A stretch of DNA of 64,000 bases, from assembly GCA_035691845.1 (NCBI GenBank), contig DASSIN010000061.1, forward strand, positions 2,950-66,949. The letters are read 5' to 3'. Every line of letters starts with the position of its first letter. Within the stretch, counting starts at the first letter, position 1. Below, in pieces: positions 14,112-40,136 of this stretch. Source of the stretch: Candidatus Eiseniibacteriota bacterium. Lineage in GTDB: Bacteria > Eisenbacteria > RBG-16-71-46. Under the pieces are notes generated by a model, which worked only from the letters and a program-made list of their open reading frames with translations, was not told the origin of the DNA and ran no database searches. Both the position numbers and the translations under genes were made by a program.

Positions 14112-14350
14112 GCCCGCGACCCCTCGAAGACCTCGCCGGCCGTCCTGCCTATCCCGACGAGCGATACTTCCACACCGATCTGCCAGAACTTGAAGTGGAT
14201 GACATGCGCATTGAGCGGGAGTGCCGCCGACTCGCCGCTCTTCAAGCGGCGCTGCAAGGGCATCGGGTGCCACCATGGATCCTCGAACGCATCGAGTGCA
14301 TTGACGACGAACTCCGCCGCCGCGGCTGCGAGGTGAGTCGTGGACAGTGA
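14108..14350 (+). CDS. Hypothetical protein
   Basis: 80-aa ORF overlapping the upstream stop by 4 nt. No motif. Confidence 0.3.
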   Translation: MSPRPLEDLAGRPAYPDERYFHTDLPELEVDDMRIERECRRLAALQAALQGHRVPPWILERIECIDDELRRRGCEVSRGQ

Positions 14351-16143: not shown

Positions 16144-16156
16144 TATCATACATCCC

Positions 16157-16336
16157 ATGAAGCGGCCGGTGCGGGTCAGGGTCGAGTCACTGCGGGGCAC
16201 GGTTCCCCTCGTGGTGCGGCTCCCTTCGGCCCTGCATCGCGCGTTGCTTGCGGAGAAGAAGCGTACTGGACGTACCGTGAACCTGATTGTCCGAACGGCC
16301 CTGGAGGCGCGATTGGCGCGGAGGAAGCAGCAGTGA
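16157..16336 (+). CDS. Ribbon-helix-helix (Arc/CopG-like) small protein
   Basis: MKRPVRVRVESLRGTVPLVVRLPSALHRALLAEKKRTGRTVNLIVRTALEARL is an RHH pattern. The stop overlaps the integrase GTG start. Confidence 0.4.
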   Translation: MKRPVRVRVESLRGTVPLVVRLPSALHRALLAEKKRTGRTVNLIVRTALEARLARRKQQ

Positions 16337-17553: not shown

Positions 17554-17612
17554 AATACGAACGCCCGGGGGGTGCGCCCGGGCGTCGTCTCGCGTTGAGT
17601 CTGTCGCGGCGG

Positions 17613-25185: not shown

Positions 25186-26640
25186 TCACCGCCCGCGGAT
25201 GATGACCTTGAGCAGCGTGCCCGCGGCCACGCGATCGCCGGGCTGCACGTCGTTCAGGATGGCGTCGTCGTCGACGTCCGCCGCGCGCGAGCCCATCCGC
25301 TGCACCACGCTGGCGAAGCTGCCGGCGACCGGCGCCTCCTGCACGCGCACGCGGTCGGGGCGCACGTCGAGCAGCGCGGGATCGCTCACGTTGCGGAACG
25401 AGCGCATGGTGTCGAACTCGCGCTGATCGTCGTCGCCGCCATTCGATGCGCCCAGGATCTGGAACATGCGGTCGTCCTTGCGGATGAACGCTGCGGCCAG
25501 CGTGGCCTGCACCGGCTGGCCCTGCGCGTTCTGGCCGGCCACCTCGACGTGGCCGACCCACGCCGGCAGCCCGCCCACCGACTCGAGCTGGCCGCGGCGC
25601 GCCGTGATCTTGCCGGCCGCCTGGAGCTGATCCACGTACGCGCCCGGGGACGCGCCCTTCGCGTCCACGATCGACACCTGCATCGCGGCGCTCTGGTCGG
25701 ACTTGGCCGCCGTCACCGCCTGCTGGGTGTCCTGGTGCTGCCAGCCGGACGGGAACGTGACCTCGAACGCGAGCGAGGGGTTCACGTAGCGGTCGCCGGT
25801 GAAGTAGCCGTGGCGCGGATCGGACCCGAACACGATGTTGTTCATGCGCCGGACGTATGGCTCGCGCACCACCAGCAGCCCGCTCTTCCCCGCCGTCGCC
25901 TGCTGCGACAGCTGGGTGGTGCGCTGCTCGCGGTCGCCGGGGTCGGGATGGGTGGACAGGAACCCGGGCAGGCGCTGCCCGGCCTTGTCGCCGACGCGCT
26001 TCAGCATCGCGTAGGTGAGCGGCATCTGGCGCGAGTCGTAGCCGGCCTGGGTCGCGTACTGGACGCCCAGCTCGTCGGCCTCGGTCTCGTCCTGCCGGCT
26101 GTAGCGCAGGAACAGCAGCCCCAGCGCCTGCTGCGCCACCCCGCCGAACTGCCGGAACGTGGACGAGGTCGCCGATGCGATCCCGAGCCCGAGCCCGTAG
26201 AGCTGCTGCTGGGTCATCTGCTCGGCCGTGTGGCGGTGGGTGACGTGCCCGCACTCGTGCCCGAGCACGCCCGCGAGCTGCGCCTCGCTGTCCAGATACG
26301 GCAGGATCCCGCGCGTGACGAAGATGTAGCCGCCCGGCATCGCGAACGCGTTCACCGACGGATCGTCGATCAGCGTGAACGTCCAGCCGAGATCGGGCTG
26401 GTGCGACGCGTGCGCCACCTTCTGCCCCACCTGGTTCACGTACGCCTGCAGATCGGCGTCGTCGTACTTGCCGTACTGCTGGATGGTCTCGTTGTAGCCC
26501 TGCAGCCCGAGCGTCTTCTCCTGCCCCGGGCTCACGAGCGACAGCTCTCGGCGGCCGGTGACGGGATTGGTGGCGCACGCCGCCACGAACGCCAGCGCCG
26601 CCGCGATGGCGAGCGCCGCCCACCCTCTGGTCCCGAGCAT
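25186..26640 (-). CDS. M48-family zinc metallopeptidase lipoprotein (BepA/YfgC-like) with C-terminal extension
   Basis: Lipobox LAFVAAC. HExxH as HECGH plus a downstream ETEADE region. A strong GGGAGGA Shine-Dalgarno lies 5 nt before the ATG at 26638-26640. Confidence 0.7.
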   Translation of the reverse strand: MLGTRGWAALAIAAALAFVAACATNPVTGRRELSLVSPGQEKTLGLQGYNETIQQYGKYDDADLQAYVNQVGQKVAHASHQPDLGWTFTLIDDPSVNAFAMPGGYIFVTRGILPYLDSEAQLAGVLGHECGHVTHRHTAEQMTQQQLYGLGLGIASATSSTFRQFGGVAQQALGLLFLRYSRQDETEADELGVQYATQAGYDSRQMPLTYAMLKRVGDKAGQRLPGFLSTHPDPGDREQRTTQLSQQATAGKSGLLVVREPYVRRMNNIVFGSDPRHGYFTGDRYVNPSLAFEVTFPSGWQHQDTQQAVTAAKSDQSAAMQVSIVDAKGASPGAYVDQLQAAGKITARRGQLESVGGLPAWVGHVEVAGQNAQGQPVQATLAAAFIRKDDRMFQILGASNGGDDDQREFDTMRSFRNVSDPALLDVRPDRVRVQEAPVAGSFASVVQRMGSRAADVDDDAILNDVQPGDRVAAGTLLKVIIRGR

Positions 26641-27126
26641 CGATCCTCCCTGCGGCGTTGGCCGCGGTCTGGCGCGCCCTGGCCGGGACGGCTCGGCCTC
26701 GGTCGCGCGCGGGAATCCGGCCGCCACGAGCTCGGCGCGCACGCGTGCCTCGAGCCCGTAGGCCGGCAGCTCGCGGCGGTGGCGGCGGTAGCCGCGCCAC
26801 GCCAGCTCGAGCAGGTAGCTCCACGCCGTCATCCCGCTCCGGTACTGGCCGACGTGCACCAGCTCGTGCGCGAGCAGCGCGAGCCCGTCGGCCGTGCGCG
26901 TGTCGCACGCCCCGCGGCGGAAGTGGATGGTGCGCCCGCGCGTGAGCCCGATCACCTGGGAGAGCGGGGCCATGTACCACGGCAGCCCGTGCTCGCGGAT
27001 GCGCGCGGCCTCCAGGTCCGCGGCCGGGAGGTGCCGGGCGAGCGCCGCCTTCTCGGCCGCGGCGAGCGGCCGGCCGGCGCGGGAGCGCCGTGCCCGGGAT
27101 CGCGGAACTGCGTTAGGGTATGGCAT
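26641..27126 (-). CDS. DUF4157-like (HExxH, eCIS-core-type) domain ORF, in frame with the downstream M48 peptidase and lacking its own stop
   Basis: GLTRGRTIHFRRGACDTRTADGLALLAHELVHVGQY matches the DUF4157 core (grtI.f.....d...........LLaHELtHVvQ). There is no stop codon between it and the M48 ORF. The start was chosen at MPYPN (27124-27126). Confidence 0.35.
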
Positions 27127-27144
27127 GAGGGCGGAATCTAATCT

Positions 27145-27570
27145 ATGGTCTGCCGGATGTTCGAGCGCACCTTTCCCCGGGCCCTGGGCAGCCTGGAGCC
27201 GATGTTCGCGTTCGTCACCGAATTCGCGTCCGCGCAACGCCTTTCGCCCGCGGCCACCGGCGATCTGACGCTGATTGCCGAGGAGTTGTTCACGAACTGC
27301 GTCAAGTATGGCGGGGGCCCGGAGGGGGTCGCGATCGGCCTCGATCGCCAGGGGGCCGAGGTGACGCTCCGGCTCGTGGATCCCGGTGCCAGGCCGTTCG
27401 ACCCCACCGCCGCGCCGGCGGCCGACGTGGCGGCGCCGATCGAGGCCCGGCGGGCGGGCGGCCTGGGGATTCATCTGGTGCGCAGCATCGCCCGCGAGCT
27501 GCGCTATGCGCGCGAAGGCGGCGCCAACGTGGTGACCGCGGTGATTGGGACGGAGGGGGCGGAGGGCTGA
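27145..27570 (+). CDS. Anti-sigma regulatory factor (RsbW/SpoIIAB-like Ser/Thr kinase, HATPase_c)
   Basis: Bergerat-fold motifs: E..TNCVKYG (N-box) and GGLGIHLVRSIA (G-box). 141 aa. Confidence 0.6.
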   Translation: MVCRMFERTFPRALGSLEPMFAFVTEFASAQRLSPAATGDLTLIAEELFTNCVKYGGGPEGVAIGLDRQGAEVTLRLVDPGARPFDPTAAPAADVAAPIEARRAGGLGIHLVRSIARELRYAREGGANVVTAVIGTEGAEG

Positions 27571-27854
27571 TGTTCGAGCTGCGGGTGGAGGACGGGGGCC
27601 GGGTGGCCCTGCAGGGCCGGCTGGACGCCTCCCAGGCGGACGAGGCCGGCGAGCGGCTGGCGGCGCTGTCGGGCGCGGTCGTCCTCGACTGCGCCGCCCT
27701 CGATTACATTTCCAGCGCGGGCATCGGCGTGGTGGTGGAAACCTTCAAGCGCCTGCGGAATACGGGCGGCAGCCTCAAGATGGTCAACGTTCCCCCGCGC
27801 ATCCGCACGGTGTTCACCTATGCCGGGCTCGATCGCGTGCTTCCGATGGAGTGA
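27570..27854 (+). CDS. STAS-domain anti-sigma-factor antagonist (RsbV/SpoIIAA-like)
   Basis: LDCAALDYISSAGIGVVV contains the conserved phosphorylatable Ser in DxISSAG. 94 aa. Start adjoins the upstream stop. Confidence 0.65.
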   Translation: MFELRVEDGGRVALQGRLDASQADEAGERLAALSGAVVLDCAALDYISSAGIGVVVETFKRLRNTGGSLKMVNVPPRIRTVFTYAGLDRVLPME

Positions 27855-27909
27855 CGCCGCCCCCCGCGGCGGATTTTTTCATCAACCTTTTCCCCCCGGG
27901 CCGGTCCTT

Positions 27910-28455
27910 ATGGAAGCAGCCGAGGACGCCGAGCTGGTCCGACGCACGAGACATGGCGACGTTCGGGCGTTCGAGGCGCTGGTCGCGCGGTACGAGCGGC
28001 CGGTGTTCCACCTGGCGATTCGAATGCTGGGCAACCGGGAGGACGCGCGGGACGTGACGCAGGTGGCCTTCGTCAAGGCCTATCAGCGCCTCGATCAGTT
28101 CGACGGTCGCAGCCGGTTCTTCAGTTGGCTGTACCGGATCGCGATCAACGAGTCGCTGAACGCGCGGGCCCGGCGGCAGCCGGCGGAATCCTTGGACGAA
28201 TCGCTTGAGTGGACGGGCCGCTCCCCCGACGAAGAGGCGGGCCGGAGCGAGCTGGAGGAGCTGGTGCAGGAGCTGATGGCGCGGCTCGAACCGGCGCAGC
28301 GGGCGCTGCTCGTGATGCGGCACCAGCTGCAACTGTCGTACGCGGAGATCGGGGAGACGCTGGGCGTCCCCGAGAAGACGGTGAAGTCCCGATTGTTCAC
28401 GGCGCGGCGCGCGCTGGAAGTGCTGCTGCGCCGGCGCGGAGTGACGCAGGCATGA
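27910..28455 (+). CDS. ECF (group 4) RNA polymerase sigma-70 factor
   Basis: Region 2 (FEALVARYERPVFHLAIRMLGNREDARDVTQVAFVKAY) and region 4 HTH (LSYAEIGETLGVPEKTVKSRLFTARRAL) are both present. Confidence 0.8.
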   Translation: MEAAEDAELVRRTRHGDVRAFEALVARYERPVFHLAIRMLGNREDARDVTQVAFVKAYQRLDQFDGRSRFFSWLYRIAINESLNARARRQPAESLDESLEWTGRSPDEEAGRSELEELVQELMARLEPAQRALLVMRHQLQLSYAEIGETLGVPEKTVKSRLFTARRALEVLLRRRGVTQA

Positions 28456-29228
28456 GCGACGACAGGCTCGAACGTGTGATGGACCAGGTGCTGGACGGCA
28501 CGGCGACGCCGGCGGACGCGGCGAAGCTGGACGCGGCACTGGCGGGCGACCCTCGGGCCCGCGCCCGGTACGACGAGATGCGCAGCATGTTCCGGGCGTT
28601 GACGGCCGCTGCCGAGGTGCCGCCCGCCGATCTGCACGAGGGCATCATGGAAGGCGTGAGGGAAAGCGTGGGCCGCGCGCGCGCGACGGTGAGGCCGCAT
28701 CCGTCCGCTGCGCGCGCGGTCCCGCATCCTGCGCTGCTCAAGTTCGCGTTCGCGTTCGCGTGCGGAAGCCTGGCGAGCGCGGTGCTGGTGCTGTCGCTCG
28801 TCGCGGGTGGGCCGCGCGCGAAGGGCGACCGGCTGCAGGCCGAAGGCACGATGGCGCCGCCCTCGCCGGCGTGGAGCGCACCGATCGCGCTCGAGGCCCC
28901 GGGCGCGAGCGCGGAGGCGCGCGTGGCCGCCGACGCGCGCGGCGTGCGCGTGGACCTCGACTGCCGCGGCGGCGCCAGGATGGTGAGGCTCGAGGCGGCG
29001 GGCGGAGCGCTCGCGCCGGCGGGCGTCACGTGGAAAGCCGGCCCGGCAGGGCGCATCACCCCGGCGCCTGACGGGGTCGAGATCGAGCTGGCCGGGCCGG
29101 CGCACTATCAGGTGATTTTCGACCGGATCGGTGCCACGCCGGCCGATCTGACGCTGCAGCTCCAATCCAGTGACGGCATGCGTTCGGTATCTCTGCTCAC
29201 GAGGGACCGCTCTGGCGAGCACCGCTAG
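28452..29228 (+). CDS. Membrane anti-sigma factor (N-terminal anti-sigma domain, single TM, periplasmic C-terminal domain)
   Basis: ATGA overlap with the sigma-factor stop. N-terminal helical ASD-like region; TM segment LLKFAFAFACGSLASAVLVLSLVAGG. Confidence 0.55.
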   Translation: MSDDRLERVMDQVLDGTATPADAAKLDAALAGDPRARARYDEMRSMFRALTAAAEVPPADLHEGIMEGVRESVGRARATVRPHPSAARAVPHPALLKFAFAFACGSLASAVLVLSLVAGGPRAKGDRLQAEGTMAPPSPAWSAPIALEAPGASAEARVAADARGVRVDLDCRGGARMVRLEAAGGALAPAGVTWKAGPAGRITPAPDGVEIELAGPAHYQVIFDRIGATPADLTLQLQSSDGMRSVSLLTRDRSGEHR

Positions 29229-29285
29229 AGCCACAGGCGGCCCGGCGGTCTGACCCCGGTGCACGCAATACGGAGGGGAACGGAC

Positions 29286-30485
29286 ATGACTCGCAGGCAG
29301 CTGACGATCGTGGCAGGGATCCTGGTGCTCGCCACCGGGATCGGGTTCGTGGCCATGCGCGCGAACGGCCCGGTGCGTGACACGAGCGGCGCGATCGGCG
29401 CCGCCCAGCGCTACCACTCGGACCAGATCGCCGAGGGCGACGTGCAGCTCTCCGACGCCCAGGTGCAGGCGTTCCTGCAGAGCGACACGTTCCACAAGAT
29501 CGCGACCAATCCGGAATTCCGGAAGGCCGTGACGAGCGGCGAGTTCGCCAAGGCCGTGCAGGTGAACGGCACCGGGCTGATCTTCCAGGACACGCGCCTG
29601 ATCGCGCTGCTCAAGAGCGACACGTTCCAGAAGTTCGAGTCCGACGCCGGCCTGAGCCAGCTCGCCGCCAGCGACGCGTTCGCCCAGTTCGCGGCCGATG
29701 CCCAGCGCGATCCCTCGCTCGTGGACGCGATGAAGACGATCGTGGCCGACGACCACGCCCGGGCGATCGTGACCGAGACCGGGCTCGTGACGTTGCTGAA
29801 GAGCGACGTGGCGCGCCAGACGCTGCAGAGCGACAACTTCGCCAGGGTGATCGACTCGGGCGCGCTGCAGCGGCTGTCGCACGGCGACGTGTTCGAGAAG
29901 TTCATGGCCGACGTGGCCAGGCTCGGCACCACCGATACCGGGCTCCAGAACCTGATCGAGGCCAACCACCAGTACACCGAGCTGTCCAAGTCGACCGACT
30001 ACGCGGTGCTGGTGAAGGACGGACTCAACAAGCTGATCGACGGCGGGTTCGCCAAGCTCTACACGGCGGGCGACGTGGGCAGCCGCATCACCGACTACCA
30101 GGCGATCTGCAAGGACGCCCCGGCGCTGGCGGCGATCGCCAGCGACGCGTTCAGCCACTACCTGGCCGACGTGGCCAAGACGACCACCGACGCCTCGATG
30201 CAGATCGACGCGGCGAAGCAGCTCGTGGCCAACGACGCGTTCGAGAAGTTCGTGACCGACGCGGGCTTGAAGACGCTCGTCACCGACGCCGGCTTCGTCA
30301 CCGCGCTCCAGAACGACGCCGTGCAGCACGCGCTGACCGACGCCAACGTGCGCACCGTGATCACGGGCGACGACTTCCAGAAGCTCGTCACCAACCCCGA
30401 CTTCCTGAACCTGGCCTCCAAGCCCGAGTTCCTGGCCTCGGTGCGCGACGGCTCGCTGCAGAAGGCGGTGGAGTCGGCCGAGTAG
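29286..30485 (+). CDS. Membrane-anchored tandem-repeat protein (about 16 degenerate ~10-20-aa repeats of pattern L..SD.F.KF..DAGL)
   Basis: GGAGGGG Shine-Dalgarno 7 nt before the ATG. N-terminal TM LTIVAGILVLATGIGFVAM. Repeats such as SDTFHKIATNPEFRKAV, SDTFQKFESDAGL, SDAFAQFAADAQR, NDAFEKFVTDAGLKTLVTDAGFVTALQ. Confidence 0.5.
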   Translation: MTRRQLTIVAGILVLATGIGFVAMRANGPVRDTSGAIGAAQRYHSDQIAEGDVQLSDAQVQAFLQSDTFHKIATNPEFRKAVTSGEFAKAVQVNGTGLIFQDTRLIALLKSDTFQKFESDAGLSQLAASDAFAQFAADAQRDPSLVDAMKTIVADDHARAIVTETGLVTLLKSDVARQTLQSDNFARVIDSGALQRLSHGDVFEKFMADVARLGTTDTGLQNLIEANHQYTELSKSTDYAVLVKDGLNKLIDGGFAKLYTAGDVGSRITDYQAICKDAPALAAIASDAFSHYLADVAKTTTDASMQIDAAKQLVANDAFEKFVTDAGLKTLVTDAGFVTALQNDAVQHALTDANVRTVITGDDFQKLVTNPDFLNLASKPEFLASVRDGSLQKAVESAE

Positions 30486-30593
30486 CTTCGGTTATCGTCA
30501 CGGCACGCACGGGGATCCCGCGCCGGCGGGATCCCCGAAGCGTTTGTGCCGGAACCGCGTTCACGCCCACTCCCACTCCCGACGAGCCTCCCG

Positions 30594-33563
30594 ATGCGCA
30601 GCGCGATCCATGTCGTGTTGCTGGCGTGCGGCGCGCTGCTGCCCGCGGCCGCCCTGGCGGCCGGCGGCTTCCAGGAGATCGACGCCCCGGGTGTCAGGCT
30701 CATCTACCCCGCGCCGCTGCTCTCCTACCTCGCCCCCTACACCGCGCGCTGCTTCGAGAACGCCTACCGGTTCCACACGCGCTACTGGGGCTACGCGCCG
30801 TGGGACCGCGTCAACCTGATCCTGGACGACGCCGGCGACTACGGGAACGCCGGCGTCACGGCGAGCCCGCGCAACACCATGGTGGTGCACATCGCGCCGT
30901 CCAACTTCGTGTACGAGACGGGCCCCAGCAACGAGCGCATCAACTTCACCATGAACCACGAGATGACGCACGTGGTGGCGCTCGATCAGGCGAGCGGCTC
31001 CGACCGGCTGTTCCGGCGGCTGTTCCTGGGCAAGGTGCGCGAGACCGACGAGCACCCGGAGTCGATCCTGTACGGCTACCTGACCGTGCCGCGCCGCGCC
31101 GCGCCGCGCTGGTACCACGAGGGGATCGCGGTGTTCTGCGAGACGTGGATGGCGGGCGGCATCGGCCGCGCGCAGGGGCCGTACGACGAGATGGTGTTCC
31201 GCGCGATGGTGCGCGACTCGGCGCAGTTCTGGGATCCGCTCGGGCTCGAGTCCGAGGGCACGCGCGTGGACTTCCAGGTGGGCGTCAACTCCTACCTGTA
31301 CGGCACGCGCTTCATGGACTACCTGGCGTACCGCTACGGCCCCGACACGCTGCGCGCGTGGATCTCGCGCCAGCCCGGGAGCCGCAAGTACTTCTCGGCC
31401 CAGTTCCGCCACGTGTTCGGACGCTCGCTCGAGGACGTGTGGCACGACTGGGCCGCGTTCGAGCGCGACTTCCAGCATGCGAACCTCGATTCCATTCGCC
31501 GCTACCCGGTGACGCCGGCGCGCGACCTGTCGCGCGAGGCGCTGGGCTCGGTGTCGCGGGCGTACGTGGACTCCGCGCGGCGCGTGGTGTACGTGGCCGT
31601 GCAGGGACGCGGCTCGCTCGCGCACGTGGCGGCGATTCCATTGGACGGCGGGCCCTCCCGCACGCTGGCCGAGGTGAAGGGGCCGGCGCTCTACTTCGTG
31701 TGCGCGCTGGCGTGGGATCCCGATCGGCGCATGCTCTACTACACCGCCGACAACAACGACTGGCGCGACCTGATGAGCCTCGATCCCGCCACCGGCCGCA
31801 CGCGCCGGCTGATCCGGCAGGCGCGGATCGGCGACCTCGCGTTCGATCGCGCGGACAGGAGCCTGTGGGGCGTGCGCCACTTCAACGGTTACTCGACCGT
31901 GGTGCGGCTCGCGCCGCCCTACCGCGACTGGCACCAGGTGTGGACGCTCCCCTACGGGCGCGACCTGTACGACCTCGACATCTCGCCCGACGGGCGCTGG
32001 CTGTCGGCCTCGATGGCGGAGATCAGCGGGCGGCAGAGCCTGCGGCTCTACGATCTGGCGCGGCTCGCGGCCGGCGACACCAGCGCGCGCGAGCTGCACG
32101 ACTTCGGCGCCTCGATCCCGACCGGGTTCGTGTTCACGCCCGACGGCCGCGCGCTGTACGGCACCTCCTACTACACCGGCGTTTCCAACGTGTGGCGCTA
32201 CGACCTGGCGTCGGACTCGCTCGACATCGTGAGCAACGCCGAGACCGGGCTGTTCCGCCCGGTGCCGCTGGGCGGCGATTCCCTGCTGGCGTTCCGCTAC
32301 ACCGGCCAGGGGTTCGTGCCGGCGACGATCGCGGCGCGCCCGCTGCAGGACGTGAGCGCGGTCAGCTTCCTCGGCGCCGAGCTGGTGGAGCGCAGGCCCG
32401 AGCTCAAGAGCTGGAAGGTGCCATCGCCCGCGCACGTCGCGCTCGACTCCACCGCCACGCCGCACCCCTATCGCCCGCTCGCCAGCGTGCGGCCGGTCAA
32501 CGTGTATCCGGTGTTCGAGCGCTACAAGGCCTCGGACGGCGGCGGGCTGCGCGCCAGCTTCGCCGATCCGCTCGGGTTCCATCAGCTGGACGTGAGCGCC
32601 ACGTGGACGGGCGCCCAGGAGCTGCCGTCGGACCAGCGCTGGCACCTGGCGGCCGAGTACCGCCACGCCGGCTGGACCGCGAAGCTGCGCCGCGATCCGG
32701 CCTCGTTCTACGACCTGTTCGGGCCCGTGAAGACCAGCCGGCGCGGCAACAACGCCAGCCTGGCGTGGACCCGCACGCTGATCCGCGACACGCCGCGCAC
32801 GCTGGAGCTGGCCGCGTCCGCCAGCGGCTGGACCGGGCTCGAGCGGCTGCCCGACGCACAGAACGTGGCCACGCTGGCGGGGTTCGACAAGCTGGTGGCG
32901 AGCGAGGCCAGCCTGACGTGGAAGAACCTGCGCTCCTCGATCGGCGCCGCCGACTACGAGAAGGGCCAGATCGCGCGCGTCACGCTGTCGGCCAACACCG
33001 TGCGCCGCGTGCCCACGATCGGCGATGCGCGCTGGCGCACGTTCCCGATCGCCGAGGCGGCGCTCGACCTGGGCCAGCCGCTGCCCGTGCGCAACAGCTC
33101 GCTGTGGCTGCGCACCGCCATCGGCGGCGGCAACGGCGATCCGGCCGAGCCGTTCGCCACCACGTTCTTCGGCGGGTTCGGCAACAACGTGGTGGACCAC
33201 GCCGAGCCCAAACGCTTCCGCGACGTCACGAGCCTGCCCGGGTTCGAGATCGACCAGGTGGCGGGCCGCACCTACGGCCGCGCGCAGCTCGAGCTGAACC
33301 TGCCGCCGCTGCGCTTCGAGCGCGCCGGCGTGGTGCCGTTCTACGCCACCTGGGCGCGGCTGGCGCTGTTCACGACCGCGCTCGCCACCGATCCCGACCG
33401 CCCGGCCGAGCGCGCCCGCTACGGCGACGTGGGCGCGCAGGTGGACGTGCGCTTCCAGCTCCTGACCCAGCAGCCGCTGACGCTGTCGTTCGGGTTCGCG
33501 CGCGCCACGCAGCGCCACGGCCCGGGGCGCGACCAGGGCATGATCTCGCTCAAGATCCTGTGA
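30594..33563 (+). CDS. Secreted ~990-aa protein with a gluzincin-like HExxH...E motif and TolB-like beta-propeller repeats
   Basis: Signal peptide MRSAIHVVLLACGALLPAAALAAG. NHEMTHVV followed about 50 aa later by HEGIAVFCE. Repeats DISPDGRWLS and FTPDGRALYGTSY indicate propeller blades. The C-terminus is rich in beta-strand-like alternating residues. Confidence 0.5.
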   Translation: MRSAIHVVLLACGALLPAAALAAGGFQEIDAPGVRLIYPAPLLSYLAPYTARCFENAYRFHTRYWGYAPWDRVNLILDDAGDYGNAGVTASPRNTMVVHIAPSNFVYETGPSNERINFTMNHEMTHVVALDQASGSDRLFRRLFLGKVRETDEHPESILYGYLTVPRRAAPRWYHEGIAVFCETWMAGGIGRAQGPYDEMVFRAMVRDSAQFWDPLGLESEGTRVDFQVGVNSYLYGTRFMDYLAYRYGPDTLRAWISRQPGSRKYFSAQFRHVFGRSLEDVWHDWAAFERDFQHANLDSIRRYPVTPARDLSREALGSVSRAYVDSARRVVYVAVQGRGSLAHVAAIPLDGGPSRTLAEVKGPALYFVCALAWDPDRRMLYYTADNNDWRDLMSLDPATGRTRRLIRQARIGDLAFDRADRSLWGVRHFNGYSTVVRLAPPYRDWHQVWTLPYGRDLYDLDISPDGRWLSASMAEISGRQSLRLYDLARLAAGDTSARELHDFGASIPTGFVFTPDGRALYGTSYYTGVSNVWRYDLASDSLDIVSNAETGLFRPVPLGGDSLLAFRYTGQGFVPATIAARPLQDVSAVSFLGAELVERRPELKSWKVPSPAHVALDSTATPHPYRPLASVRPVNVYPVFERYKASDGGGLRASFADPLGFHQLDVSATWTGAQELPSDQRWHLAAEYRHAGWTAKLRRDPASFYDLFGPVKTSRRGNNASLAWTRTLIRDTPRTLELAASASGWTGLERLPDAQNVATLAGFDKLVASEASLTWKNLRSSIGAADYEKGQIARVTLSANTVRRVPTIGDARWRTFPIAEAALDLGQPLPVRNSSLWLRTAIGGGNGDPAEPFATTFFGGFGNNVVDHAEPKRFRDVTSLPGFEIDQVAGRTYGRAQLELNLPPLRFERAGVVPFYATWARLALFTTALATDPDRPAERARYGDVGAQVDVRFQLLTQQPLTLSFGFARATQRHGPGRDQGMISLKIL

Positions 33564-34612
33564 CCGCGCTCGTCCCGATCGTCGTCGGCCTGGGGCCGGT
33601 GATCGTGTTCCTCGCCGCGCTGGTGGCGATGGACAGCTATCGCCTGGTGCGGCGCCGCGACGTGGCCATGAGCCTGGCGTGGGGCGCGCTCGCCGCGCTG
33701 CTGGCGTGGTTCGCCAACGGCGCGCTGCTCGCGCGCGGGATGCCGCGGGCGGAGGTGACCGGCACGTTCGCGCCGCTGTTCGAGGAGGCGCTCAAGGCCG
33801 CGTGGGTGGTGGTGCTGCTCGCCACCGACCGCGTCGGGTTCCTGGTGGACGCCGGCATCCACGGATTCGCGATCGGCACCGGGTTCGCACTGGTCGAGAA
33901 CGCGAGCTACGCGCACGCGATCGGCTCGGGCCCGGTGCTGCTGTGGGTGGCGCGCGGGCTCGGCACCGCGGTGATGCACGGCGCCACCACCGCCGTGGTG
34001 GCGATCGCCGCCAAGGCGCTGGCCGAGCGCCACCACCGCCCCGCGTGGCTCGCGACGCTGGCCGGCTGGGCGCCGGCCGTGGTGGTGCACGCGCTGTTCA
34101 ACCGCTACACCGGCTCGCCGCTGGTCTCGACCACGGTGCTGCTCGTCACCATGCCGCTGCTGCTGCTGGGCGTGTTCGAGTGGAGCGAGCGCGCCACGCG
34201 CCGCTGGGTGGGCGCCGGGCTCGATCAGGACGCCGACGCGCTGGAGCAGATGCTGGGCGACACCGCCCACGACACGCCCGCCGGCCGCTACCTGGCCGAG
34301 ATCTCGCACCGGTTCCCGCCCGCCGCGGTGGCGGACATGTTCTGCCTGCTGCGCATCCACCTCGAGCTGTCGGTGCGCGCCAAGGCGCTGCTGATGGCGC
34401 GCGCCGCCGGCGTCGAGATCCCGCTCGACGACGACGAGCTGCGCGCCCAGTTCACCGAGCTCAAGTTCCTCGAACGCTCGATCGGCCGCGCCGGCCTGCT
34501 GGCCCTGGCCCCCCTGCGTCGCAAGAGCAGCCGCGACCTGTGGCAGCTATTGGTCCTGCAACGCGGCTCGCTGTCCGCCAGCTTGCCGCCCGCGCTGCGG
34601 CGGGATCAATAG
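33560..34612 (+). CDS. PrsW/CPBP-family intramembrane metalloprotease
   Basis: Polytopic. Motifs: FEEALKA (EExxK/R), GTGFALVENASYA (FxxxE), HGATTA and HALFNR (HxxxN). A GTG start overlaps the upstream stop. Confidence 0.55.
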   Translation: MTALVPIVVGLGPVIVFLAALVAMDSYRLVRRRDVAMSLAWGALAALLAWFANGALLARGMPRAEVTGTFAPLFEEALKAAWVVVLLATDRVGFLVDAGIHGFAIGTGFALVENASYAHAIGSGPVLLWVARGLGTAVMHGATTAVVAIAAKALAERHHRPAWLATLAGWAPAVVVHALFNRYTGSPLVSTTVLLVTMPLLLLGVFEWSERATRRWVGAGLDQDADALEQMLGDTAHDTPAGRYLAEISHRFPPAAVADMFCLLRIHLELSVRAKALLMARAAGVEIPLDDDELRAQFTELKFLERSIGRAGLLALAPLRRKSSRDLWQLLVLQRGSLSASLPPALRRDQ

Positions 34613-34657
34613 CACAGCGCGTAGGGAAGCCCCGGGGGATTCACGTCCCGGGCTCCC

Positions 34658-35344
34658 TCACCGCCGATAGAGCGCCTTGATCTGGCCCCAAGACTTCGGC
34701 AGTGAGGGAACGGTGTTCGTCTGCCAAGTCACGACATTCTGCCTGTTCGAGAACCTGATCGTCGTGACGCTGCCATCCGACAAGAGGAACACCATCTGTC
34801 GAAGCGTGATCGTCGCGTAATCACTGCATCCCCCGCATGCTCCAATCCCAAATGCGTTCGTATTCATGATCCGGAGCCGCGCACCAAGATATTCGACTCC
34901 GGAAGTCGGCTGAAGACCCCCGGAGAAATATCCCACGACACTGAGCTCCGCCTGATTGGGGAATCCAAGGGTCGAGTGGAAGAACTGCTGCGTGCTATCA
35001 GGTGTGACGCCCAAGTTCGCACATCCAGGTCCATCCGAGGGCAGGTATCCAGGGGCAACCGCTCCCGCCCTGCACAGGCCGCTGCCGACCATCCACCAGT
35101 CGGGCAGCAGGGAGTCGTTCGGAGTTTGAATGATAAGGTCGACGTTGTAGGCCACGATCGGTGCTTGAAAGGAGAACCCGGCGAAAGACGCCACAAGGTC
35201 TTCGCTCCCGACGTTCGTCGAACAGGCGAACGTCTTGCTCGTGACTCCGCCAACTCCGCAATCGTCCCACGCCAGATCGATGGCCTGCGCGCAGGCGGGC
35301 CCCGCCAGTAGCATGGTGACTGCAACTAGAAACCATCGGCCCAT
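34658..35344 (-). CDS. Secreted Cys-containing hypothetical protein
   Basis: Signal peptide MGRWFLVAVTMLLAGPACAQA. 228 aa with several Cys pairs. Lower local GC. Confidence 0.4.
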   Translation of the reverse strand: MGRWFLVAVTMLLAGPACAQAIDLAWDDCGVGGVTSKTFACSTNVGSEDLVASFAGFSFQAPIVAYNVDLIIQTPNDSLLPDWWMVGSGLCRAGAVAPGYLPSDGPGCANLGVTPDSTQQFFHSTLGFPNQAELSVVGYFSGGLQPTSGVEYLGARLRIMNTNAFGIGACGGCSDYATITLRQMVFLLSDGSVTTIRFSNRQNVVTWQTNTVPSLPKSWGQIKALYRR

Positions 35345-35358
35345 CCCGCTCCTCCTGC

Positions 35359-37106
35359 TCACCACAGGCTCTGCCACGCGGAGCCATCGTAGATCTGCGC
35401 CTTGCCCGTGGACGTATTGAAGATCGTGTCCCCCGCTGCCCAATTGGAGAACGCCGAGACGTCGGAAGCTGAAAGCCTCGGAAGCCTGATTCGCCACATG
35501 CTGCCGAGGAGAACGCTCTTACTCGACTGATCGCCCACGTCCAGCTCTTGCGAGGCGCCAAGTCCACCCACGACTCCCCCGCCCGACACGGTCGCTTCGC
35601 ACGAGCTTCCGATAACCACGTGGTGCCCGGAACTTGGCTTGGCGCTCTCGAAGATGGTGAGGTTCGCCACCTCAATGCTCTTCCCAGTCCCGGCGAACTC
35701 GACGTAGGTCGTCTGGCTTGAGCCCGCGCTCGAAAACAGGCATGACCTGACCGCAATCCCGATGTAGTTGCCCGAGTTCGACGTCGCCTTGATCACGGTT
35801 CCGGGTATGTCCTCGAACCAGCACCCTACGATCACGACTTGGTTCGTTTCGGTCAGGTGGATGGCTCCGCCATTGCCGGGGGTTCCCGCAAGCCCGGCTT
35901 GAAAGACACACCGCTCGAAGGCGAGGCCGTTGGCGGTTGTCGCGAGGACAGCGGAGTCGTTGAATCCCTGGAAGAAGCAGTCCTTGAAGTACTGGGTCGT
36001 TGAAGCCTCGGTCTTCGTGGCTGGTGACGGCGAGTCGATGGCCACGCAGCCCTTGCCAGGACTGTCGACATCGACTCTTTCGTAAACGCCCCATACCGAG
36101 AAATTGTTCTCGGGATTCGAGCTGTTGTTCCGCGTTCCATCAACGTGGACGCCATATCCCGCGCAGAAGGAGATCTTCACGTCCCTGACGTGAACGCCGA
36201 ATATGTCCGTGTCCACGCCCGATCCGACCTTGTCGCTCTTGATGCGTATTCCGGCGCCTTCGCCGCTGAGTTTGTTGAATTCGACCGGGCCAACAATGGA
36301 GAGGCGTTCGATCGTCTGGTTGATGCCCTGGATGACGATCAGGTCTGTGTCGACATCCATGTTGTTGGCGTAGTCAAGTATCGTTTGATCAACGCCATCG
36401 CCAAGAATAGTCACTGGCCTGTCGTCGGGCAGCAGCAACGGGGGCGTAAACGAGGGAGCAGTGGTGAGCCCGTAAACGCCGGCCGGTATATAGACTACCC
36501 CCCCCCGGTGGGAAGGGCGTCTATCGTGGCCTGAATGGTGGGGTAGTCGCGGGCGTTGACCCAGGCCACGCCGCCGCGCATCCAGCCGCCCTCGACATCC
36601 TCGTACAGGAGGTACGAGATGTAATCCGCGCCGAAGATGGTGACGATGATGTCGTAGCGCGTCTCGGCAACGTAGAATCCGATGTATCCCTCGCCATCGG
36701 CGATCGGCGCCGACGTCGCGGCCCACGTGCCGGTGGCCTCGTTGTACACAGTCGGGAACGAATCGGTCCGGACAAGACGTGAGCCACGCTCCAGCGGGAT
36801 GGCGTCCGTCCCCGTGTTGTGGATCGTGACCGTGGGTCCGGAGGCCAGGTTCATCGCCGTGATCGTCATCGTGTTGGTGGAGCTATCCGTGCCGTTCTGC
36901 ACGGTACTTCCGACCGCGAGTCGCCCGGTGTCGTAGACGTCCACGGCGACCGCTGCCCCGCCGGAGATCGTGACTGCCGTGCGAACGGTCGCGCCGAGAT
37001 AGTGAGGAACCACTGGCGCGCCCCCGACCGGGACGAGGGTCGAGTCTGAGGTGGATGCCTCGGCGAGGACCCTGGTTTCGTAGTGTCGCAATGTCAGCTT
37101 CGGCAT
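35359..37106 (-). pseudogene. Pectate-lyase-fold (Pectate_lyase_3 / tailspike-like right-handed beta-helix) gene interrupted by a -1 frameshift at a G9 homopolymer
   Basis: The upstream ORF (36495..37106) ends ...YPTIQATIDALPTGGG then stop. The downstream ORF (to 35359) continues VVYIPAGVYGLTT...TILGDG with beta-helix repeats. Ten G instead of nine would fuse them into IDALPTGGGVVYIPAGVY, the canonical N-terminus of this fold. Confidence 0.6.
36497..36505. repeat. Homopolymeric C9 (G9 on the coding strand) tract at the frameshift site
   Basis: Nine consecutive C read directly from the sequence, flanked by TA and GG. Confidence 0.9.
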
Positions 37107-37276
37107 GACAGCCCTTTGGCCGGCGCCGCGCCGGGGTCGGGCGCGGTGGTCATTCGGTCAAGAGCATACCGCTTCACGGGCCCCGGGCTTCAGTCGTTTC
37201 TTCCGTCTGGACCCGAGACTCGCCGGAAGCTGCAGCTACGCGGTTGCCAAGGCGTTATGGCGAGCCCGAGGCCCGA

Positions 37277-38728
37277 TCAATAGCGCGGGACGGCGGGGTC
37301 GATTTCGCGGGACCAGGCGTCGATGCCGCCTTGCAGGTTCTTGAGCTTGCGGAAGCCGGATTGCTTCAGGAACTCCAGCGCGCGCTGGCTCCTCTGGCCG
37401 TGGTGGCAGTAGAGCACGATCTCGCGGCTGGAATCGAGCTCGGAGACGCGCTCGGGCAGGGAGTTGAGCGGCATCAGCGTGGCGCCCTCGATGCGCGCGA
37501 TCTGCCACTCGTGCGGCTCCCGCACGTCCACCAGCATCGGCGGGTCGCCCGCGCGCTGCTGGTCGGCCAGCCCGCGCACGGAGATGTCGTCGGCGCCGGC
37601 GTGCGCATCGGCGGGCACGATGCCGCAGAACTGCTGGTAGTCGATCAGCGCCGTCACGCTCGGATGCTCGCCGCACACCGGGCACTCGGGGTCCTTGCGC
37701 AGCTTGAGCTCGCGGAACCGCATCGCCAGCGCGTCGAACAGCAGCAGCCGGCCGATCAGGGGCTCGCCCGCGCCGAGCAGCAGCTTCAGCGTCTCGATCG
37801 CCTGCACCACGCCGATCACGCCCGGCAGCACGCCGAGCACGCCGCCCTCGGCGCAGGACGGCACGAGCCCGGGCGGCGGCGGATCGGGGTACAGGCAGCG
37901 GTAGCAGGGCCCGCGCTTGGCGTCGAACACGCTGGCCTGGCCCTCGAACCGGAAGATGCTGCCGTACACGTTGGGTTTGCCGAGCAGCACGCACGCGTCG
38001 TTCACGAGGTAGCGCGTCGGGAAGTTGTCGGTGCCATCCACGATCACGTCGTAGCGCGCGAGGATGTCGAGCGCGTTCTCGCTCGAAAGCCGCACGGCGT
38101 GGCGCTCGACCTGCACATTGGGATTGATGTCGCGGATGCGGTCGGCGGCGGAATCGAGCTTGGGACGGCCGACGTCCGCGGTGCCGTGCAGGATCTGGCG
38201 CTGCAGGTTGCTCTCGTCCACCACGTCGAAGTCCACGATGCCCATGCGGCCGACGCCGGCGGCGGCGAGGTACAGCGCGAGCGGCGAGCCGAGCCCGCCG
38301 GCGCCCACGCACAGCACGCTCGAGGCCTTGAGCTTCCGCTGCCCGGCGAGCCCGACCTCGGGCAGGATCAGGTGCCGGCCGTAACGCAGCAGCTCCTCCT
38401 GCGACATCGGCGGCAGGCCGTCCTCGCCCGTCGCCCACGCCGGCGCGCGGCGGCCGCCGGCGATGCTGGGCACGATCGCGACGTGGTCTTCGGCCGAGAC
38501 CGGCGTCGCCTCGCGCGCGAGGTGGCGGATGTCCTCGTCGTTCACGTACACGTTGACGAACCGCCGCAGCCTGCCGTCGGCGTCGTACAGGTGCGCTCGC
38601 AGCGCCGGGTGCGCGGCCACCAGCTTCGCCAGCGCCTCGCCCGCCGTCGCCGCCTCGACCTCGATCGTGGCGAGCCCGCCGGCATAGGCGCGCAGCGGCG
38701 TCGGAATGTGAATGCGGATCGTGCTCAC
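37277..38728 (-). CDS. Fusion protein: ThiS/MoaD/CysO-like sulfur carrier (ending Gly-Gly), then MoeB/ThiF-type E1 adenylyltransferase, then C-terminal rhodanese (MoeZ-like)
   Basis: GTG start with GAGGAG 8 nt upstream. A beta-grasp domain ends ...IVPSIAGG, a 16-aa linker follows, then MSQEELLRYGRHLILPEVGLAGQRKL...VGAGGLGSP (E1 Rossmann), CxxC pairs (CYRC, CPVC) and the rhodanese active site LYCHHGQRS. Confidence 0.75.
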   Translation of the reverse strand: MSTIRIHIPTPLRAYAGGLATIEVEAATAGEALAKLVAAHPALRAHLYDADGRLRRFVNVYVNDEDIRHLAREATPVSAEDHVAIVPSIAGGRRAPAWATGEDGLPPMSQEELLRYGRHLILPEVGLAGQRKLKASSVLCVGAGGLGSPLALYLAAAGVGRMGIVDFDVVDESNLQRQILHGTADVGRPKLDSAADRIRDINPNVQVERHAVRLSSENALDILARYDVIVDGTDNFPTRYLVNDACVLLGKPNVYGSIFRFEGQASVFDAKRGPCYRCLYPDPPPPGLVPSCAEGGVLGVLPGVIGVVQAIETLKLLLGAGEPLIGRLLLFDALAMRFRELKLRKDPECPVCGEHPSVTALIDYQQFCGIVPADAHAGADDISVRGLADQQRAGDPPMLVDVREPHEWQIARIEGATLMPLNSLPERVSELDSSREIVLYCHHGQRSQRALEFLKQSGFRKLKNLQGGIDAWSREIDPAVPRY

Positions 38729-38733: not shown

Positions 38734-39198
38734 CTACTCCTCTGCGGCGGGATCGGCGGCGGCGCGCGCCGCGTGCGGCGCCACGATCGCCACCTCGACC
38801 TCGTCGAACGCGGCGCGGTCGTCGCGCAGCCGCCAGGCGGTGGTGGCCTCCGCACGCCCGCGCACGACGCCCACGATCACGTAGTCATACCACGGCCAGG
38901 CGTGCTCGAGATCGAACGCCGAGGGGCGCGCCGGGTGGTCGGGGTGCGAGTGGAAGAACGCCACCACGTCCAGCGCTTGCGCGCGCGCGCGGCGTTCGGC
39001 TTCCAGCACCTGCCCGGGCGCGATCAGGTAGCGGTTCGCGCGCGAATCCTCACGCGTGTTCTCGAACGCCATCACCTCGGCCACCTGGCGCGCGCCGTCG
39101 CCGCGTCCCAGCAGCACGCCGCAGCCCTCATCGGGATACGCGCGCTCGAGCGCGGCGTGGATCTGCGCGAGCTGATCGCGCGACAGCTCGAGCCTCAT
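38734..39198 (-). CDS. mec: JAMM/MPN+ metalloprotease (Mec+-like CysO-cysteine peptidase)
   Basis: JAMM motif E...HSHPDHPARPSAFD (HxHx7Sx2D). 154 aa. ATGA overlap with the cysM stop. Confidence 0.7.
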   Translation of the reverse strand: MRLELSRDQLAQIHAALERAYPDEGCGVLLGRGDGARQVAEVMAFENTREDSRANRYLIAPGQVLEAERRARAQALDVVAFFHSHPDHPARPSAFDLEHAWPWYDYVIVGVVRGRAEATTAWRLRDDRAAFDEVEVAIVAPHAARAAADPAAEE

Positions 39199-40136
39199 GC
39201 CGCGCCCTCGGCGTCCCACAGCGGATCGCTCAGGTAGCGCTCGGCGCCGTCCGGCAGCACGCACACCACCACGCCCGACTCGAGTCCGCGCGCCACGCGC
39301 GCGGCGGCCGCCACCGCCGCGCCGGCCGACCAGCCGAGCAGCAGCCCCGCGCGCGCCTGCGCCTTCACCGTGGCGATCGCCTCCTCGCTCGCGATCGCGA
39401 GCGTGCGGCGATGGACGGAAGGATCGTAGATCGGCGGCACGAGCGCGCTCGGCAGATGCTTCAAGCCTTCGAGCGCGTGCAGCGGGCCGTCCGGCTGCAC
39501 GGCGATCACCTCGATCGCGGGATCGAATTCGCGCAGCCGCCGCGCGCATCCCACCAGCGTGCCCGAGGTGCCGATGCCGGCGACCAGGTGCGTGATGCGG
39601 CCCTCGGTCTGCTCCCAGATCTCGACCGCGGTGCCGTGATAGTGCGCGAGCCAGTTGGCGGGGTTGGCGTACTGGTCGGCGTGGAAGTAGCGCTGCGGGT
39701 GGCGGCGCGCCAGCCCGCGCGCCGCGCGGATCGCGCCGTCGGTGCCCTCCATCGGGTCGGTCGGCACGATCTCGGCGCCCAACGCCGCGATCAACCGGCG
39801 GCGCTCGACGTTGGCGTTCCCCGGCAGGCACAGCGTGACCCCGATGCCGCGCCGGGCGCCGATCCAGGCGTAGGCGATCCCGGTGTTGCCGGAGGTGGCA
39901 TCCAGCAGTCGCCGGCCGCCGGCGAGCGAGCCGTCGCGCTCGGCTGCCTGGATGATGGCCCACGCCGCGCGGTCCTTGACCGAGCCACCCGGGTTCGCGC
40001 TCTCCAGCTTCCCGAGCACGGCCACCCCGTCGGGCAGATCGAGGCCCGCGATCGGCACGAGCGGCGTGTGCCCGATGCGGGCGGTCAGGTCGGGAATGGC
40101 CAGATCCGTGGCCTCGGGGGCGTGGTGCCGGTGCAT
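39195..40136 (-). CDS. cysM: Cysteine synthase CysM-like (PLP-dependent, thiocarboxylate-utilising type)
   Basis: PLP-binding region SVKDRAAWAII, glycine-rich loop DATSGNTGIAYAWIGA. 313 aa. Confidence 0.8.
   Translation of the reverse strand: MHRHHAPEATDLAIPDLTARIGHTPLVPIAGLDLPDGVAVLGKLESANPGGSVKDRAAWAIIQAAERDGSLAGGRRLLDATSGNTGIAYAWIGARRGIGVTLCLPGNANVERRRLIAALGAEIVPTDPMEGTDGAIRAARGLARRHPQRYFHADQYANPANWLAHYHGTAVEIWEQTEGRITHLVAGIGTSGTLVGCARRLREFDPAIEVIAVQPDGPLHALEGLKHLPSALVPPIYDPSVHRRTLAIASEEAIATVKAQARAGLLLGWSAGAAVAAAARVARGLESGVVVCVLPDGAERYLSDPLWDAEGAA

Follow-up and report, generated by a model that had tools for sequence, protein, structure and literature searches.

A conserved seven-gene cassette in Candidatus Eiseniibacteriota that may couple a PrsW-family intramembrane protease to an ECF sigma factor

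We analysed a stretch of 64,000 nucleotides of DNA from Candidatus Eiseniibacteriota bacterium (GenBank assembly GCA_035691845.1, contig DASSIN010000061.1, positions 2,950 to 66,949), called the window below; coordinates are positions within it unless another locus is named. It harbours a cassette of seven + strand genes (27145-34612), in which a homologue of the intramembrane protease PrsW is encoded together with a sigma factor of the extracytoplasmic function (ECF) type and a membrane anti-sigma factor. By analogy with the Bacillus subtilis system, the cassette looks like an undescribed form of PrsW-type regulated proteolysis of an ECF anti-sigma factor. More specifically, we give roughly even chances to the cassette being an autoregulated trans-envelope switch acting on the ECF sigma factor, with the PrsW homologue as site-1 protease. 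This reading builds on gene content, domain assignments, conserved catalytic residues, synteny, gene fusions and the specificity of a promoter-like motif, and takes all of its interactions and cleavages from the precedent of PrsW and RsiW in B. subtilis. The cassette includes three protein families or domains without functional annotation.

Because the G+C content of the window is about 72%, genes were called from third-position G+C (GC3 frame plot) together with translations. The first two genes of the cassette encode an RsbW-like serine kinase/anti-sigma regulatory protein (27145-27570, 141 aa; Pfam HATPase_c_2, 76.4 bits against a cut-off of 27.4) and a STAS anti-sigma-factor antagonist (27570-27854, 94 aa; Pfam STAS, 55.7 bits; NCBIfam TIGR00377, 58.9 bits against a cut-off of 53.45). 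They are followed by the ECF sigma factor (27910-28455, 181 aa from the ATG at 27910), a single-pass anti-sigma factor (28452-29228, 258 aa), a membrane-anchored repeat protein (29286-30485, 399 aa), an envelope protein of 989 aa (30594-33563) and the PrsW-family glutamic-type intramembrane protease (33560-34612, 350 aa). Stop and start codons overlap in three gene pairs, namely kinase/STAS (ATGA, 27567-27570), sigma/anti-sigma (ATGA, 28452-28455) and 989-aa protein/PrsW (GTGA, 33560-33563), and the repeat gene is set off from its upstream neighbour by 57 nt and from its downstream neighbour by 108 nt. A first-pass annotation of this DNA had listed the last five genes, and frame plot and translations placed all of them at the same coordinates. 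It had treated these five as the whole unit; the genes belong together, but the unit also extends upstream to the conserved kinase and STAS genes. It had also described three genes as coupled by overlapping stop and start codons, where the overlaps were confirmed but link three gene pairs and leave the repeat gene spaced on both sides. Finally, its idea of a self-contained envelope-signalling cascade agrees with the fusions and the cassette-specific ECF-type motif presented below, both of which point to one functional module, but it overlooked the partner-switching pair and the cytoplasmic domain of PrsW.

To place the cassette among its relatives, one genome per GTDB species was scanned. A relative of the 989-aa protein was encoded in 231 genomes, and 80 loci were taken for analysis; they originate from Eisenbacteria, Krumholzibacteria, Zixibacteria, Gemmatimonadota, Ignavibacteria/Bacteroidota and Acidobacteriota, i.e. 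from at least six phyla. Synteny was counted by tblastn with the seven window proteins, with testable loci as denominators. The PrsW gene was located on the same strand and at most 400 nt downstream of the 989-aa gene in all loci (75/75), the gap being mostly -3 to +20 nt. By tblastn, 46 of 50 loci had a sigma gene no more than 5 kb upstream of the 989-aa gene, and one more (L051) was recognised by its motif. The STAS gene was found upstream in 47 of 50 loci and the kinase gene, within 5 kb, in 43 of 50; in Gemmatimonadales this pair is inverted. On three long contigs, the seven-gene order was accompanied by unrelated flanks. Recurrence of the same order in 80 loci with differing flanks indicates that the arrangement did not arise by chance, and the synteny in relatives on which the first-pass annotation had made its proposal depend was indeed observed.

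An NCBI protein from a metagenome-assembled genome, 'PrsW family glutamic-type intramembrane protease [Candidatus Eisenbacteria bacterium]', has the same sequence as the PrsW homologue (100% identity). Pfam PF13367 matched the homologue at residues 35-202 with 68.6 bits (cut-off 23.5), the protease domain comprising approximately residues 1-205. All four motifs of the family are present: E75 E76 xx K79, F109 xxx E113, H140 and H177 xxx N181. Residues E75, E76, K79, F109, E113, N114, H177 and N181 were kept in 67/67 sequences and H140 in 65/67, and the motif residues are invariant in the family alignment (A2). The corresponding motifs of B. subtilis PrsW are E75E76xxK79, F110xxxE114, H138 and H175xxxD/N179, of which E75/E76 and H175 matter according to mutagenesis (PMC12943098). 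PF13367 was the sole family matched, and no match to Pfam CPBP/Abi (PF02517) appeared at E <=0.01. With PF13367 above its cut-off and the four motifs kept, the assignment to PrsW in the first-pass annotation is supported over the immunity-type CPBP clade.

Behind the protease domain, the PrsW homologue carries a strongly conserved, family-specific C-terminal domain of about 135 aa (approximately residues 206-338; 34175-34573), which the positive-inside rule, applied after the last transmembrane helix, places in the cytoplasm. A profile of this domain retrieved 652 cluster representatives at E <=0.001 among 1.84 billion proteins. Among the best 150 of these 652, all except fragments and frameshifted sequences bore the domain at about residues 200-335 of a protein of about 335 aa, representing a single architecture. 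Three matches of odd length (P0340, P0408 and P0334) were considered as new architectures and rejected as frameshifted or low-quality sequences. Comparison of the domain with Pfam yielded noise only (e.g. MCR_alpha_N at E 0.08-0.2), and a profile search of PDB sequences gave no match. Fusions of PrsW proteins with cytoplasmic signalling domains are on record; they were proposed as signalling peptidases and distinguished from toxin-linked PrsW proteins (Zhang et al. 2012, PMC3482391).

The 989-aa protein encoded directly upstream is composed of a signal peptide (residues 1-24), a domain with an HExxH motif (residues 25-305), a TolB-like propeller (residues 309-580; 31518-32333) and a predicted beta-barrel of about 16 strands (residues 633-988; 32490-33557). 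The AlphaFold2 model, built on 30 homologues, reached a predicted local distance difference test score (pLDDT) of 79.7 and a predicted TM-score (pTM) of 0.76. In this full-length model, the N-domain is alpha/beta, and the HExxH motif (HEMTH, residues 122-126; 30957-30971) and Glu176 (31119-31121) are situated on helices 112-132 and 172-186, both after a beta-sheet. Glu176 is embedded in the segment WYHEGIA, reminiscent of the Glu helix of M1 type. Residues H122, E123, H126, E176, G177 and A179 were invariant in 82/82 sequences from several phyla, i.e. the gluzincin combination of HExxH with a downstream Glu is conserved, and the motif that the first-pass annotation had reported is intact in orthologues. 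When 31 N-domains from diverse phyla were compared with Pfam, their zincin-clan matches were concordant, all of them below threshold: Peptidase_MA_2 in 8/31 (best E 1.9e-4), BSP in 7/31, and DUF2268, SprT-like, WLM and YgjP-like in one or two each. Profile searches of PDB sequences with the N-domain returned nothing meaningful, and the model of the domain alone, computed from a 10-sequence alignment, was unusable (pLDDT 45). Taken together, the motif and these matches make the N-domain a probable, still putative, zinc peptidase.

As for the remaining parts of this protein, TolB entries headed the Foldseek list of PDB matches to the propeller (E 4e-9 to 1e-7, probability 1.0), followed lower down by propellers of S9 peptidases. 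Superposition on TolB gave a TM-score of about 0.5, normalised to TolB length, and Pfam PD40 matched weakly in 23/30 members of the family. The barrel produced sub-threshold matches to Pfam Omp85_2 in 18/30 members, and one of its internal loops, FFGGFGNN..D...R.R, is long, conserved and reminiscent of loop 6; furthermore, one UniRef homologue is named a 'surface antigen (D15) domain' protein. The 989-aa protein showed neither a POTRA domain nor a match to an Omp85 model above its cut-off, and a profile search of PDB sequences with the barrel found nothing. Relatives of the whole protein number more than 6400 and are mostly unnamed. The predicted C-terminal barrel suggests that the protein is probably anchored in the outer membrane and not released, so that the term 'secreted', used for it in the first-pass annotation, is probably wrong. 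Judged by Omp85 topology, the peptidase and propeller domains more likely face the periplasm.

The repeat protein is anchored by an N-terminal transmembrane helix (residues 4-27) and shows a 9-residue periodicity: its BLOSUM autocorrelation peaks at lags 9, 18, 27, 45 and 54, and Tandem Repeats Finder (TRF) detected a 27-nt period within the gene (30371-30432). It diverges fast, and a word-based search gave 24 homologues only. Across phyla, a juxtamembrane module (GTIGAAxRY…DV.L.D…QAFLQSD.FH; with GAIGAAxRY in the window protein) is conserved. It is followed by 9-residue repeats, degenerate in the window protein but close to perfect in Gemmatimonadales, where locus L076 has about 25 copies of ASDAFRQVM. 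The profile STI1-HOP_DP of Pfam (PF17830, cut-off 29.1) matched two relatives, P0259 with 43.5 bits and P0260 with 30.0 bits, others falling below the cut-off, and did not match the window protein; the similarity may reflect the composition of the repeats.

What connects this protein to the anti-sigma factor is a set of loci where the anti-sigma N-domain, a transmembrane helix, the juxtamembrane module and the repeats are fused in one open reading frame (ORF). They include Gemmatimonadales (L070, L073, L075-L077, L080, L081), Vicinamibacterales (L059) and a metagenomic locus (L085), and in each of them the fused ORF is positioned between the sigma gene and the 989-aa gene. These fusions indicate that the repeat domain forms part of the extracytoplasmic side of the anti-sigma apparatus. 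In loci of the split type, the anti-sigma position is filled by an ORF of 215-275 aa with a transmembrane helix at about residues 95-125. Another locus, L086 (GCA_046708005.1, JBKKDV010000014.1), consists of a sigma gene, an anti-sigma::repeat fusion and PrsW, with a 123-aa ORF (4000-4371) that matches only the last barrel strands of the 989-aa protein. It was considered as a variant lacking the 989-aa protein and rejected, this C-terminal remnant pointing to a deletion or an assembly artefact.

The sigma factor possesses sigma-70 regions 2 and 4 only (Sigma70_r2, 67.1 bits; Sigma70_r4_2, 56.7 bits) and matches TIGR02937 with 113.1 bits (cut-off 42.9), as expected of ECF (group 4) sigma factors. 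Its best named NCBIfam model is SigW (NF007223 / TIGR02948), with 118.8 bits against a cut-off of 209 and 109.4 bits against 243; by these scores it is below both SigW equivalog cut-offs. The anti-sigma factor consists of a cytoplasmic N-domain, a transmembrane helix (residues 94-121) and a periplasmic domain of about 137 aa, and weakly matches anti-sigma models of NCBIfam (NF052375, E 1.7e-5; PRK13920, E 2.5e-4). Upstream of this pair, the HATPase_c_2 kinase adjoins a STAS protein with a conserved serine, the composition of a partner-switching pair. The serine is contained in the STAS segment D-Y-I-S-S-A-G, of which SSAG is also found in the homologues whose sequences were compared; we take it to be the position that is phosphorylated in SpoIIAA/RsbV. 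On an Eisenbacteria-like contig (L004, 11092-13622, - strand), genes for a PP2C phosphatase and an FHA-GAF-SpoIIE phosphatase follow directly after PrsW. They could be the phosphatases that the kinase/STAS pair lacks; at this position they are not conserved in other loci.

A bipartite ECF-type motif, CATCAACCTTTT-N-GGTCCTT (27877-27912, + strand, 30.3 bits), runs into the ATG of the sigma gene; no other site in the 64-kb window reaches 14 bits. Its consensus, CCAACYTT-N12-TGTAnTT, precedes the sigma gene in 52/57 loci. When about 1.3 Mb of related loci was scanned on both strands with a matrix that took in only the two conserved blocks, 68 hits scored 22 bits or more, and all of them (68/68) lay inside the cassette, upstream of the sigma gene or of the repeat gene. 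The sigma start codon was set by the conserved in-frame start 1-8 nt past the motif. The AAC-N17-GTA spacing of the motif agrees with that of ECF promoters of sigma-W type. Read as a promoter, the motif is the candidate promoter of the sigma factor itself, and the cassette would then be autoregulated. No sigma-70 promoters were found by a consensus scan of 26900-35000.

Two RNA features were also noted in the cassette. Directly after the STAS stop codon, a terminator-like GC hairpin and T-run (CGCCGCCCCCCGCGGCG then GATTTTTTCA; 27855-27880, + strand) suggests that the kinase and STAS genes are transcribed apart from the sigma operon; its position is suggestive, its count is not, since two such sites were seen and 2.1 were expected from shuffles. 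At the junction between the repeat gene and the 989-aa gene, a GC-rich RNA hairpin (30489-30557, core stem 30510-30537, + strand) folds with a minimum free energy of -46.8 kcal/mol (z = -4.6), equalled by none of 200 shuffles. Comparable hairpins were present at this junction in 49% of related loci, as against 6% in a coding-region control. As it is not followed by a T-run, the hairpin may be an attenuator or a stability element.

The following model is proposed for the switch. In the resting state, the membrane anti-sigma factor would hold the sigma factor through its cytoplasmic N-domain. The anti-sigma apparatus would extend into the periplasm through the nonapeptide-repeat domain, a separate anchored protein here and a fused one in other lineages. 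There, the propeller and the putative zinc-peptidase domain of the 989-aa protein, itself anchored in the outer membrane, might engage or trim the ectodomain of the repeat protein or of the anti-sigma factor. The PrsW homologue, whose gene is translationally coupled to that of the 989-aa protein, would then make the membrane-proximal site-1 cut in the anti-sigma factor, as PrsW does with RsiW in B. subtilis. Cytoplasmic proteases and a site-2 protease with its gene elsewhere in the genome would release the sigma factor. Freed sigma would transcribe from CCAACYTT-N12-TGTAnTT, that is, its own operon and, in many genomes, the genes for the repeat protein, the 989-aa protein and PrsW. This would amount to positive feedback, with the cassette as the main local target of its own sigma factor. 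Finally, the separately transcribed RsbW/STAS pair and the cytoplasmic domain of PrsW probably add a cytoplasmic input.

Several observations weigh against this model. The substrate relations are set by analogy with B. subtilis PrsW and RsiW, and by score the cassette protease belongs to the PrsW family without being an equivalog of Bacillus PrsW, reaching 16.8 bits with the NCBIfam equivalog NF033739 (B. subtilis-type PrsW), far short of the cut-off of 225, so that its functional orthology is at most putative. It is sub-threshold matches that suggest a zincin fold in the N-domain and an Omp85-type barrel, and the periplasmic, as opposed to surface, orientation of the peptidase and propeller domains is deduced from Omp85 topology. 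The sigma start is located 1-8 nt (usually 3) past the -10-like element, unlike normal promoter geometry, which implies either a leaderless mRNA of unusual geometry or another role for the motif. Furthermore, two related genomes (L011, 6341-11913, and L018, 6476-11991) keep the order kinase-STAS-repeat-989aa-PrsW with no sigma/anti-sigma pair in between. Finally, a copy of the motif was found 75-118 nt upstream of the repeat gene in 27/61 loci, which would be accounted for equally well if the downstream genes were the output of the sigma factor.

According to such an output model, which we regard as possible though rather on the unlikely side, the sigma and anti-sigma factors would form an ordinary ECF switch triggered in some other way, and the repeat, 989-aa and PrsW genes would be its dedicated regulon: an inducible machine for protein processing or quality control in the envelope, with PrsW not acting on the anti-sigma factor. 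In such a machine, a holdase role would fall to the repeat protein with its STI1-like helices, the 989-aa protein would be a peptidase gated by its propeller, and membrane-anchored fragments would be cleared by PrsW. Besides the motif copies upstream of the repeat gene and the confinement of strong motif hits to the cassette, the two loci without an intervening sigma/anti-sigma pair favour this model, as does the tightest linkage being that of PrsW to the 989-aa gene and not to the anti-sigma gene. The resemblance of the repeats to STI1/DP helices also fits, such helices being known to bind hydrophobic client segments in eukaryotic co-chaperones. However, fusion of the repeat domain to the anti-sigma N-domain, in several orders, suggests a part of the sensing apparatus and not an effector only. 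The output and signalling models can also coexist; in FecA-type systems, one component is sensor and target at once.

Two other explanations were considered. It is improbable, in our judgement, that the 989-aa protein, as a type Vd-like autotransporter, sends its N-terminal peptidase and propeller to the cell surface through its own Omp85-like barrel and acts there as an extracellular protease or adhesin linked to sigma and PrsW by co-regulation only. Its predicted order of N-terminal passenger, linker and C-terminal barrel of about 16 strands, which we take to resemble that of patatin-like type Vd proteins, would suit such a protein, and so would the sub-threshold Omp85_2 matches in its family, but the POTRA domain was not detected. 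TolB-like propellers are typically periplasmic, and a surface location is hard to explain given the strict coupling of the 989-aa protein with an inner-membrane protease and with the periplasm-facing anti-sigma and repeat domains. As for the PrsW homologue being a CPBP/Abi immunity protein, a PrsW that exports toxins in a polymorphic toxin system or a component of anti-phage defence, unrelated to sigma signalling, we consider the three jointly to be highly improbable. The C-terminal domain without family match might speak for any of them, but this domain is conserved rather than polymorphic and was seen in one architecture among the best 150 of 652 matches, PF13367 and not CPBP was matched, neither immunity-like nor toxin genes are present in the cassette, and none of the seven cassette proteins (0/7) matched PADLOC. 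Signalling-type PrsW proteins with cytoplasmic domains are, moreover, distinct from those linked to toxins (Zhang et al., PMC3482391).

The proposed regulated-proteolysis switch can be taken one step further, into a proteolytic AND-gate with two inputs, although we deem this extension unlikely. The propeller-gated zinc peptidase, anchored in the outer membrane, would read the envelope through the nonapeptide-repeat tether of variable length, and phosphorylation within the RsbW/STAS pair would supply an input to the cytoplasmic domain of PrsW. If this were true, trimming of the tether would license a dedicated site-1 protease of PrsW type, and the cassette would represent a previously unrecognised type of trans-envelope sensor, which would report, for instance, on the integrity of the outer membrane, the width of the periplasm or the mesh of the peptidoglycan and control an ECF sigma factor across much of the Fibrobacteres-Chlorobi-Bacteroidetes (FCB) group, Gemmatimonadota and Acidobacteriota.

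In the literature open to our search, outside which most subscription journals lie, no paper was found on the cassette, on linkage of PrsW to an ECF sigma/anti-sigma pair, on the architecture of the 989-aa protein or on a nonapeptide-repeat anti-sigma ectodomain, in keeping with the remark in the first-pass annotation that the arrangement was not recognised as described. In the paper that reclassifies ECF sigma factors, PrsW and STAS do not occur in the main text. Names of the cassette proteins in databases are generic, such as 'PrsW family glutamic-type intramembrane protease', 'TolB family protein' and 'hypothetical'. We know of no identified activator of PrsW, even in Bacillus, where prsW is unlinked to sigW-rsiW, which encodes its substrate. 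Here, a PrsW homologue is kept beside an ECF pair and three candidate regulators, i.e. the outer-membrane protease/propeller protein, the repeat ectodomain and the partner-switching pair. The cassette thus offers a compact, defined system for dissecting how site-1 cleavage by a PrsW-type protease is controlled, and its highly specific promoter-like motif could be used as a reporter. It spans hundreds of species in poorly studied soil and sediment phyla, and gives a testable function to three unannotated families or domains (the ~990-aa protein, the nonapeptide-repeat ectodomain and the C-terminal domain of PrsW).

Several other features of the window were recorded. Divergent from the cassette and just upstream of it, a - strand gene (25186-27474) encodes a 762-aa protein with eCIS_core (DUF4157, 43 bits) and Peptidase_M48 (132 bits) domains; it is not conserved beside the cassette in other loci. 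Still further upstream, a 1020-aa molybdopterin oxidoreductase fused to C-terminal 4Fe-4S dicluster domains is encoded on the - strand (21400-24462). Directly downstream of PrsW, about 2.5 kb (34650-37200) has a G+C content of 0.65, a weak codon-position signal and ORFs without family match, and a right-handed beta-helix protein (Beta_helix, 25 bits, just under the cut-off) is encoded on the - strand at 35359-36726. A 483-aa ORF at 37277-38728 (- strand) combines ThiS, ThiF and Rhodanese, that is, a sulfur carrier fused to its activating enzyme, and is located near a PALP-family enzyme (39195-40136). The region from about 10000 to 17600 has a G+C content of 0.62-0.67, as compared with about 0.72, and most of its ORFs lack a Pfam match, one encoding a DUF6941 protein. 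It ends at a gene for a tyrosine integrase (16333-17553, + strand), which adjoins or overlaps tRNA-Leu(TAA) (17461-17545, - strand); the region is probably a mobile element integrated at this tRNA gene. Finally, in a 1227-aa protein encoded at 4980-8663 (+ strand), a transglycosylase (PBP-type glycosyltransferase) domain at residues 181-326 was the only one recognised, about 900 residues being without assignment.

Among known systems, FecA-FecR-FecI and sigma-E with RseA/DegS/RseP likewise couple a component in the outer membrane or periplasm to a single-pass anti-sigma factor and its ECF sigma factor, which is freed by sequential proteolysis. In the cassette, the outer-membrane partner is a predicted Omp85-like barrel with a propeller and a putative zinc-peptidase domain and not a TonB-dependent transducer, and the site-1 candidate is a glutamic protease of PrsW type, not DegS or Prc. 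The propeller of the 989-aa protein is like those of TolB and S9/prolyl oligopeptidase, but it is placed between a zincin-like domain and a barrel, and the protein has neither the N-terminal domain of TolB nor the S9 catalytic domain. Similarly, the predicted barrel with its long loop-6-like internal loop recalls the Omp85 superfamily (BamA, TamA, FhaC and the type Vd protein PlpD), from which the protein differs by having no POTRA domain or above-threshold Omp85 match. The repeats resemble the STI1/DP repeats of Hop/Sti1 and ubiquilins in being short, helix-forming and rich in D/N-P/A-x-F, relatives matching UBQLN1 weakly; the cassette protein is, in contrast, bacterial and periplasmic and has a strict 9-residue period. 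As in RsgI, a low-complexity anti-sigma ectodomain could act as the sensor. An HATPase_c_2 kinase and a STAS protein with a conserved serine beside a sigma gene are shared with RsbW-RsbV, SpoIIAB-SpoIIAA and Bordetella BtrS with BtrU/V/W, the last being a case of partner-switching proteins linked to an ECF sigma factor. Unlike these, the cassette has no conserved PP2C phosphatase, and its sigma factor already has a membrane anti-sigma factor.

As for the protease, PrsW proteins fused to PilZ, cNMP-binding, FHA or Zn-ribbon domains (Zhang et al. 2012; Leptospira LIC_20173) also bear an added cytoplasmic C-terminal domain, whereas that of the cassette PrsW matches neither Pfam nor PDB and occurred only in this subfamily among the best 150 of 652 matches. 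A further close comparison is with sigma-W/RsiW/PrsW/RasP of B. subtilis, and also with PrsW-RsiT of Clostridioides difficile: the best named model of the cassette sigma factor is SigW, the single-pass anti-sigma factor is translationally coupled to it, and the four PrsW motifs are found at nearly equal residue numbers. We also liken the AAC-N17-GTA spacing of the cassette motif to the sigma-W consensus TGAAAC-N16-CGTA. The differences are that the cassette proteins fall below the NCBIfam equivalog cut-offs for PrsW and SigW, that PrsW is linked to the sigma/anti-sigma locus in every genome examined and has the extra cytoplasmic domain of about 135 aa, and that, in a host with two membranes, the counterparts of the Bacillus components are joined by an outer-membrane protease/propeller protein, by a nonapeptide-repeat ectodomain and by a partner-switching pair.

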